Shown here in pieces: positions 27,572 through 28,500 of a DNA stretch of 39,238 nt. Origin of the DNA: a virus (lineage: Duplodnaviria > Heunggongvirae > Uroviricota > Caudoviricetes); the IMG/VR virus record IMGVR_UViG_2728369393_000005. The stretch is one strand, 5' to 3'. The notes below the pieces were generated by a model. It ran no database searches and was not told where the DNA came from. It was given only the letters and a program-made list of their open reading frames with translations. The translations under genes were made by a program, and so were the position numbers. Position 1 is the stretch's first letter. The number at the start of each line of letters is the position of its first letter.

Positions 27572-27839
27572 AAGCGAAAAAATCCCGCAGTGCTCACGGA
27601 CAGGAACTGCGGGAGAGTTACGAAGATTGAGTGTAAGGAATTATTCTTATGTCACGACAAAAACATTAACGCAGAGAAATTATACGCGCCACAGTCAGTT
27701 TGTGAAAATGTGAAGATATTCAGAATTTCTTCTGTAATAGAAATACATTCAGAGAGGGAGGATGTGCCGTTCTTTTCAGGGAGAAAGGATTTATCGTCCT
27801 GAGGAATAAAGGTAAGGGGCCTGCCCCTTACCTGACTGA

Positions 27840-28367
27840 TTATTGAATGATGCCGCAGGCCATTCTCGCACCACCACCGCCCAGGGGCTCCGGATGGTCA
27901 TGATGGTTATCACCGCCAGCATGAAGCATGAGAGAACGCCCTTTAATCTCTTTTAATGAGTTCAGTCTCGGGGCCAGGACCGGGTAGTTCGCTTTTCCGT
28001 CATGCGTCACGAACAGCGCAGGGAGGTCGCCCAGGTGTCCATCCGGAGACCAGGGGCCAAGATGTTTGCCGGTGTTTTTCGGGTCAAAGTGACCGCCAGC
28101 CGATAATGCTGCGACCGGTTTTCCGTCTTTCAGGGCCGGGGCGCAATTTCCTTTTTCGTGCACATGAAAACCATGAATGCCTTCAGACAGAGAGTGAAGG
28201 GCTGGTGTGAACAGCAGACCGTAGGGGGTCTCCTGAATGGTTATTTTTCCAATGCTGACTTCTTTTCCGTCAGCACTGACAAGGTTCATTGGGACTTCCT
28301 GTTCTGCTGCGTATCCGCATGATGCTGCTGTCAGCATGGCAATGGCAGCAATGATTTTACATTTCAT
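27840..28367 (-). CDS. sodC: Periplasmic Cu/Zn superoxide dismutase (175 aa with signal peptide)
   Basis: [20 protein letters not shown] signal peptide; GFHVHEKG ... GGHFDP ... HLGDLP ... [24 protein letters not shown] motifs; start chosen at 28367. Confidence 0.9.
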
Positions 28368-28500
28368 AAAACCCTCATTAATTCCGTTAACAGACTGAGC
28401 TTGCTGGTTACAGGGTAACAAACAGCGTTCTGATGATATCGCGCAATAGCTGTGCAATATCCTATCACTGCGATTAATAATACCAATTGAGAGGAACATT

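Follow-up and report, generated by a model that had tools for sequence, protein, structure and literature searches.

Two antisense cargo genes, sodC-F and a predicted PasB-family small RNA gene, between tail genes I and J of a defective Escherichia coli prophage

In a defective lambdoid prophage of Shiga-toxin/LEE-type E. coli, the interval that separates tail genes I and J very probably comprises two independent cargo units, the superoxide dismutase gene sodC-F and a PasB-family small RNA (sRNA) gene, both placed antisense to the tail operon. The window analyzed here is a stretch of 39,238 nt (IMG/VR record IMGVR_UViG_2728369393_000005), which from position 7399 onwards is 99.97% identical to NZ_CP014583.1 of strain CFSAN004176; the two differ at ten positions, mostly by homopolymer-length indels. 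The sodC gene of the window is an already known and already annotated gene, sodC-F of pathogenic E. coli. The additions made here are an overlooked gene of the PasB family and a rare, probably ancestral, junction.

The interval is bounded on the left by tail assembly gene I (26891..27571, plus strand), a lambda gpI homologue identified by a match to Pfam Lambda_tail_I (E = 5.5e-16), homologues of which are annotated "tail assembly protein" in NZ_CP014583.1 and LC567829.1. Its right neighbor is the tail tip/host specificity gene J (28501..31976, plus strand), recognized from Pfam J domains and the list of open reading frames; J is split in the window by a G-run that is 1 nt shorter near position 28848, and gpJ is intact in NZ_CP014583.1. 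The integrase and portal genes are frameshifted, as J possibly is too, an IS66-family element abuts the capsid gene, and no Q, lysis or terminase genes were found in this prophage. As the prophage lacks the Q, lysis and terminase region, any sodC expression must be autonomous; moreover, sodC and the tail operon lie on opposite strands, and late transcription therefore cannot yield sodC mRNA.

The sodC open reading frame, of the sodC-F type, occupies 27840..28367 on the minus strand, with an ATG start at 28367, a stop codon at 27842..27840 and an intact Shine-Dalgarno sequence (GAGGG, 28376..28372, minus strand), and encodes 175 amino acids. It was matched by Pfam Sod_Cu (PF00080; E = 3.9e-32, 111.9 bits against a cut-off of 28.9), by the NCBIfam SodC equivalog NF007628 (218.4 bits, cut-off 165) and by PHROG 1975, "superoxide dismutase precursor" (E = 9.5e-97; category "moron, auxiliary metabolic gene and host takeover"). 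Solved bacterial Cu/Zn superoxide dismutases (SODs), Salmonella SodCI (1eqw) among them, matched the product at ~1e-62, and RefSeq annotates the frame as sodC (protein WP_000649829.1). Ligand roles in SodC are assigned via homology to SOD1 and bacterial SodC. By this assignment copper would be held by H68, H70, H93 and H149, and zinc by H93, H102, H111 and D114 with H93 bridging; these residues, the catalytic arginine R168 and the disulfide pair C75-C171 are all invariant in an alignment with SodCI and SodCIII. The metal-binding histidines, whose lack the initial annotation had named as evidence against its reading, are thus all present. At the N-terminus are two lysines, a hydrophobic core, a small-residue -3/-1 site and the lipobox AASC, in agreement with the signal published for O157 SodC-F (PMC2569942). 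Judged from its sequence, the product is a periplasmic, partly lipid-anchored Cu/Zn SOD, and it is predicted to be active in the window strain. The same annotation had described a periplasmic Cu/Zn SOD with a signal peptide, lying antisense to the tail operon between I and J; the location is borne out by the position of the open reading frame and the Pfam matches of the flanking genes, and the nature of the product by the Sod_Cu and NF007628 matches and the signal and lipobox sequence.

Behind the gene lies a terminator hairpin at 27810..27833 (minus strand), with a 10-bp G+C-rich stem and a 4-nt loop, detected by terminator scan, by folding and as an inverted repeat. It begins 6 nt past the stop codon, folds at -17.4 kcal/mol (z = -4.3; 0 of 200 shuffles folded as well) and is conserved in O157:H7 NE122, where one loop base differs. 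The hairpin noticed earlier after the sodC stop is real, but its position and stem length, given then as 27817..27839 and 9 bp, are corrected by these values. On the minus strand the hairpin is followed by UUUAUUCC, an interrupted U-tract that may let some transcription run through into the sRNA gene.

The upstream spacer of sodC (28368..28500, minus strand), which doubles as the leader of J on the plus strand and had been noted beforehand as the gene's own upstream region, is a 133-bp non-coding, AT-rich segment of 40% GC and is 100% identical to the spacer of O157:H7 NE122. A sigma-70 consensus scan found nothing on the minus strand upstream of sodC, and a relaxed scan of the spacer yielded no candidate above 8/12. 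The weak candidates are TTGGTA-16-TAGGAT (28486..28481 and 28464..28459, minus strand, 8/12) and, from the relaxed scan, an extended -10 sequence TGgTATTAT (28485..28477, minus strand). The sodC promoter probably lies within this spacer.

For the expression, localization and enzymology of SodC-F we draw on the work of D'Orazio et al. [quoted passage not shown] The 299 bp upstream of the O157 sodC-F start codon drive lacZ independently of RpoS (PMC2569942), and the identical 133-bp spacer falls inside this fragment. SodC-F proteins accumulate in O157 lysogens without induction, in anaerobic culture as well as in log and stationary phase, and in bacteria recovered from inside Caco-2 cells SodC-F2 had risen 6.6-fold compared with chromosomal SodC (PMC2569942). 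In experiments the AASC lipobox of O157 SodC-F gave both soluble periplasmic and lipid-anchored membrane forms; the enzyme is dimeric, protease- and heat-stable, and more active and stable than chromosomal SodC, with an activity of 19380 U/mg for SodC-F1, and sodC-F mutants are more sensitive to hydrogen peroxide (PMC2569942).

The anatomy of the interval, the match of gene and spacer to those of O157, the PasB homology and how the arrangements are distributed were all observed directly in the sequences compared here. The O157:H7 NE122 copy has the same accession as the window (WP_000649829.1) in the same I-J position and orientation, with the same downstream cargo of lom, tail fibre and NleG effectors, and in Sakai Sp10 sodC (ECs_1989) is likewise followed by lom, tail-fibre and NleG genes. 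These O157-type prophages lack 78 bp (27678..27755) and hence the adjacent sRNA promoter, whereas the window retains both. Overall, sodC occupies the same I-J slot in 544 of 5426 complete E. coli genomes (~10%), and two complete genomes of Stx2a-converting phages show the same arrangement. That sodC is lysogenic-conversion cargo expressed independently of late transcription, as the initial annotation held, is supported by its antisense strand, its own terminator and spacer, and its identity to the O157 gene expressed in lysogens, and was already established.

The extent of the insert was obtained by comparison with related prophages that lack it, a check that had been proposed beforehand. Phage JLK-2012 and prophage PP6 of EPEC E2348/69 differ from the window only over ~27729..28500. 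BLAST similarity to these sodC-less relatives breaks off at 27728 and is picked up again precisely with the J start codon (28501); the alignment hints at weak similarity as far as ~27737, and the left boundary, set where similarity ends, was placed at 27729..27740. The sodC module (~27729..28500, ~770 bp) comprises the 3' flank, the terminator hairpin, the coding sequence and the 133-bp spacer, and where it stands in the window the sodC-less relatives have ~80 bp. The I-J spacer is 240 bp in both relatives, and the corresponding gap in lambda is only 60 bp. The module is 50% GC, the spacers 40%, and genes I and J 57-60%. Part of the sodC 3' flank (27756..27809) was aligned locally to the J leader of the sodC-less phages, with a score that was equalled by 18 of 500 shuffles. 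The interval reported beforehand, 27572-28500, does not amount to one insert: 27572..~27735 is common to relatives without sodC and holds a separate small-RNA gene. Among SodC relatives taken from one genome per species, chromosomal sodC genes, for instance of Serratia and Pseudomonas, reached at most 69% identity; as no homologue of I or J stood within 3 kb of any of them, they offer no clue to a donor.

In its form the module resembles the lambda morons lom and bor (concept of Juhala et al. 2000): between two genes that almost adjoin in lambda it adds a further one that has its own terminator, probably a promoter region of its own, and predicted expression from the prophage; lambda lom, however, is on the late-operon strand, whereas sodC and the sRNA gene of the window are antisense to the late operon. 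The closest parallel in placement is SodCIII of Fels-1 (STM0924), a Cu/Zn SOD likewise encoded antisense between gpI and gpJ homologues and divergent from the J start, with 60% amino-acid identity to the window SodC and all ligands conserved. Its upstream region is not conserved with that of the window, and since only 53 bp separate the I stop from the sodC stop, Fels-1 has no room for a PasB-type gene. SodCI of Gifsy-2 (STM1044) is similarly a phage-borne, dimeric-type SodC encoded antisense in the tail operon and a virulence-associated moron, but it occupies a slot between a lom homologue and gpL and has 59% amino-acid identity to the window SodC.

The 157 bp that follow the I stop codon (27572..27728) were present at ≥80% coverage in 821 complete E. 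coli genomes, and carry no annotation in any of the 30 records listed. The description of 27572-28500 as a sodC locus was right as to sodC and overlooked in this segment a PasB-family sRNA gene at 27577..27672 (minus strand), with a predicted transcript of ~96 nt whose 5' end was placed from the -10 box. The gene is preceded by a promoter TTCACA-16 nt-TATAAT (27706..27679, minus strand), found by promoter scan and matching 11 of 12 consensus positions. In the predicted transcript a conserved 5' block, CUGCGUUA, is accompanied by a U-run and an A-rich stretch, and the core AAUCUUCGU occupies 27628..27620; the transcript ends in an intrinsic terminator (27613..27577, minus strand) that was detected by terminator scan, fold and inverted repeat and abuts the stop codon of I. 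In the terminator CCCGCAG (27613..27607) faces CUGCGGG (27590..27584), followed by U6 (27582..27577).

In EPEC E2348/69 both northern blotting and RIL-seq have validated PasB itself (Pearl Mizrahi et al. 2021, PMC8550237), an sRNA of 83 nt that depends on Hfq and is located at NC_011601.1 1466343..1466261 between E2348C_1436 and E2348C_1437 (PMC8550237 Table S6); it is also treated in a preprint by Zhu et al. 2026. It occupies the same I-J slot and strand, and its 3' end likewise abuts the I stop. Identical promoter hexamers with the same 16-nt spacing are found upstream of the validated gene, and the two promoters are identical at 27 of 29 positions (93%), whereas the identity of the window transcript is only 67% with PasB and ~65-67% across the E2348/69 and Sakai types. 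The window, PasB and the Sakai copies have in common the 5' block CUGC(G/A)UUA, the block (A/G)AUCUUC and the CCCGCAG/CUGCGGG-U6 terminator; the window and PasB, in which (A/G)AUCUUC directly precedes the terminator, also share the 5' CGUUA motif, the U-run and the A-rich stretch. The -35 box is TTCACA in all three, and the -10 box is TATAAT in the window and PasB but AATAAT in Sakai. The terminator loop is 16 nt in the window against ~11 in the E2348/69 and Sakai types, and, unlike the PasB and EcOnc loci, the window has sodC inserted just upstream of the sRNA promoter. A pattern scan of viral contigs, together with loci fetched earlier, gave 38 distinct PasB-family variants; AAUCUUC and the 3' terminator arm formed part of the search pattern for the viral set, where their conservation is by construction. 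The terminator stem is invariant across 18 aligned members, and a covariation analysis of these 18 predicted that invariant stem alone, with zero informative pairs. On this homology, 27577..27672 is predicted to be a PasB-family sRNA gene with an Hfq-binding product.

Other signals in and around the interval were considered and set aside. At the gathering threshold, an Rfam search of the whole window returned only tRNA and sok, none of it in 27572-28500, and Rfam holds no family for the PasB-type sRNA. The sole non-snoRNA Rfam match at E ≤ 10, STnc400, overlaps the sodC 3' end at 24 bits against an 80-bit cut-off, and was treated as noise because the sodC loci of Gifsy-2, Fels-1 and O157 were likewise without an Rfam match. 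A 70-aa open reading frame at 27590..27802 (plus strand) was rejected as a gene: it has no Pfam match and crosses the sRNA gene, and the indels that distinguish the sRNA relatives have lengths not divisible by three. An apparent pairing of the PasB-like terminator loop with sodC codons 30-36 (19 nt, 84% complementarity) was ascribed to chance, the duplex energy being no better than that of shuffled sequences (71/300 and 51/300 as good).

Three orphan Hfq-CRAC peaks of EHEC Sakai, EcOnc22, EcOnc23 and EcOnc24, are homologous to one another (Tree et al. 2014, PMC4104026); EcOnc22 runs at ~85 nt on northern blot and is destabilized without Hfq (PMC4104026). We take the expression and Hfq dependence of EcOnc22 and PasB from these reports, as a guide to what the window gene might do. 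The three peaks map to Sakai prophages Sp15, Sp14 and Sp11, respectively, each within the I-J spacer and on its antisense strand. Their published coordinates refer to NC_002695.1, and with the offset to NC_002695.2 (~137-146 nt, measured only at AgvB at 1.94 Mb) they fall on the PasB-like RNAs. From these coordinates, and an offset taken from one locus, we infer that EcOnc22-24 are PasB-family members. There is one orphan Hfq peak in Sakai at each of the three promoter-bearing copies and none listed behind sodC in Sp10; the lack of a listed Sp10 peak hints faintly that loss of the 78-bp segment silences the sRNA.

The 78-bp segment absent from the common sodC-F arrangement (27678..27755) was delimited by BLAST breakpoints, alignments and inspection of the sequence, and is bounded by CAGAGA direct repeats at 27672..27677 and 27750..27755. 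It holds both the -35 and -10 boxes of the PasB-like gene, plus ~20 nt that are peculiar to the window type and occur in neither the sodC-less nor the common sodC-bearing type. The segment is missing from O157 NE122, Sakai Sp10 and the Stx2a phages, which represent the common type, and no replacement promoter-like site was found in the deleted type (O157 NE122). Only 3 of 5426 genomes span the window junction (CFSAN004176, STEC299 and an O170:H18 strain); in 541 of the 544 sodC-bearing genomes the sRNA body and terminator are kept at 98% identity with the promoter deleted. Among 126 PasB-family copies, nearly all from viral contigs, 105 have the promoter without sodC, 17 have sodC without the promoter, and none has both. 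Because of the ~20 nt unique to the window type and the direct repeat flanking the missing segment, the simplest history is one in which the window type is likely to be ancestral and the common type to have been derived from it by deletion. A fuller version can be offered tentatively, at less than even chances: the window may preserve the ancestral sodC-F state, in which sodC was inserted upstream of an active PasB-type gene, and a deletion between the CAGAGA repeats, now seen in >99% of sodC-bearing prophages, may then have left the sRNA silenced or dependent on the sodC 3'-UTR.

PhoPQ control of Salmonella sodCI is established. Golubeva and Slauch are said to have reported it in 2006, and the window sodC might be governed in the same way, by direct PhoP binding at its promoter and induction inside host cells. 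The 6.6-fold intracellular rise of SodC-F2 over chromosomal SodC (PMC2569942) would agree with such control, as would a patchy similarity of the promoter-proximal 45 nt upstream of sodC to the Gifsy-2 sodCI leader, yet between E. coli, Fels-1 and Gifsy-2 the regions upstream of these phage genes are otherwise poorly conserved. Nor was a PhoP box, (T/G)GTTTA-N5-(T/G)GTTTA with up to 3 mismatches, found in 28385..28500; the search gave two chance-level matches only, overlapping the sodC start codon, and the matches across the window (114 against 82 expected) are near chance level, which makes a Salmonella-like control improbable and sets the window gene apart from Gifsy-2 sodCI. Still less credible is that sodC is a silent relic, neither expressed nor useful. 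The heavy degradation of the prophage (frameshifts, the IS66 element, and the missing Q, lysis and terminase genes) and the failure to predict a strong sodC promoter speak for a relic, but the open reading frame is intact and encodes the same protein as the O157 gene, its terminator and Shine-Dalgarno sequence are intact, and its spacer is identical to part of the 299-bp fragment that drives expression.

A further alternative, unlikely though somewhat less so than PhoP control, joins sodC and the PasB-like RNA in one transcription unit, in which the sRNA arises at least in part by read-through of the sodC hairpin and processing and is thus derived from the 3'-UTR. The two genes are in tandem on the same strand, with 138 nt from the sodC hairpin to the predicted sRNA 5' end, the U-tract behind the hairpin is interrupted, and the sRNA body and terminator persist at 98% identity in those 541 of 544 genomes despite deletion of the promoter. 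Under this alternative, read-through would be the sole source of sRNA in the 78-bp-deleted arrangement. Against a single unit stand the strength of the sodC hairpin (-17.4 kcal/mol), the 11/12 promoter that the sRNA copy of the window has for itself, and the Sakai Hfq peaks, which occur at the three promoter-bearing copies and are not listed for the promoterless Sp10 copy; the high identity of the deleted type, moreover, may simply reflect recent common descent.

The two-unit reading, which we prefer, would operate as follows. The sodC gene would be transcribed from a promoter of its own, located within the 133-bp spacer or shortly beyond it, whose exact site we infer only broadly, and transcription would end at the 27810..27833 hairpin. 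The SodC precursor would be exported by the Sec pathway and then processed in one of two ways, cleavage after A20 by signal peptidase I or lipid modification at C17, giving a stable dimeric Cu/Zn SOD in the periplasm and on the membrane. There the enzyme would remove superoxide arising outside the cell, for example in host oxidative bursts, and the prophage would confer this trait on the lysogen whatever the state of phage late gene expression. The PasB-like gene would be transcribed separately, from the near-consensus sigma-70 promoter to the intrinsic terminator, as an RNA of ~96 nt whose 5' end is a prediction, and the RNA would presumably act via Hfq on trans targets. In an intact phage, both antisense units would collide with Q-antiterminated late transcription; in the lysogen they would be free of this collision. 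Activity of both units in the window strain is likewise presumed.

Prophage-borne SodC is a textbook example of lysogenic conversion, supplying pathogenic E. coli and Salmonella with a more stable and more active periplasmic SOD, and confirming sodC as cargo here adds nothing new; its value lies in annotation. The I-J junction of these prophages is better described as a two-gene than as a one-gene antisense cargo site, with an sRNA gene that no record examined annotates, that fits the published PasB family and that sits at the site of the EcOnc22-24 peaks. The window-type genomes and those of the common type form a natural allele pair, with the sRNA promoter present or deleted, that is usable for tests of sRNA function. 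If the fuller history proposed above is true, gain of the SodC enzyme by these prophages would have been coupled to the re-wiring of an Hfq-dependent regulator.

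Antisense to the tail operon and adjoining the stop codon of the lambda-like tail gene I lies a small-RNA gene of the PasB family (27572..27728), named for the Hfq-dependent sRNA of EPEC E2348/69. The gene has a terminator and a promoter that matches the consensus at 11 of 12, and some 1700 complete E. coli genomes contain its sequence; it was annotated in none of the records examined. Sakai sRNA coordinates that were published on NC_002695.1 are shifted by ~137–146 nt at 1.94 Mb in NC_002695.2. Read without this version correction, the Sakai Hfq peaks EcOnc22–24 seemingly lie beside the start of tail gene J, not on the PasB-like RNA.

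A 78-bp segment (27678..27755) with CAGAGA repeats on both flanks is missing from >99% of sodC-bearing prophages, and wherever it is missing the sRNA promoter is gone; the version found in the window occurs in only 3 of 5426 genomes. In the window the sodC module stands in place of a stretch that, in the sodC-less relatives, bears a terminator-like hairpin on the + strand (L004 2931..2954 in E2348/69, with equivalents in JLK-2012 and Sakai Sp11, Sp14 and Sp15). This hairpin has a 9-bp stem and the tail UGUUUUUGUG; within the tail operon, it separates the sRNA promoter from the start of J.

Gene J (28501..31976) is read as two overlapping ORFs broken near 28848, where a G-run is one base shorter than in NZ_CP014583.1 (strain CFSAN004176), whose gpJ is intact. 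Since homopolymer indels account for most of the remaining differences between the two sequences as well, the split may be a sequencing error. The gene with a phage portal protein annotation, which carries a frameshift flag in RefSeq, contains a tandem repeat (17971..18509) of 3.3 copies of a 162-bp unit at 95% identity.

More cargo follows downstream of J: a gene for an Ail/Lom outer-membrane protein (32043..32642) and, past the tail-fibre genes, a T3SS effector cluster with NleG family and DUF1076 members and a frameshifted espW, in a layout (32043..38470) that agrees with that of Sakai Sp10.

The prophage is defective. Its integrase gene (1009..2059) is frameshifted, and it has no Q, lysis or terminase genes. 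In its left part (1..14200), foreign genes (AAA ATPase, HNH) come after the cI/cro-O-P region; hok/sok lies at ~11104..11430, and an IS66-family element (~11786..14204) immediately precedes the capsid gene. The left flank (1..981) holds mtfA and tRNA-Ser, and the right flank (39238 onward; from 32118 in the comparison locus L003) potB/potA/pepT. These two loci are far apart in E. coli K-12, which suggests that the element arose by recombination between two prophages or else marks one end of an inversion mediated by a prophage.
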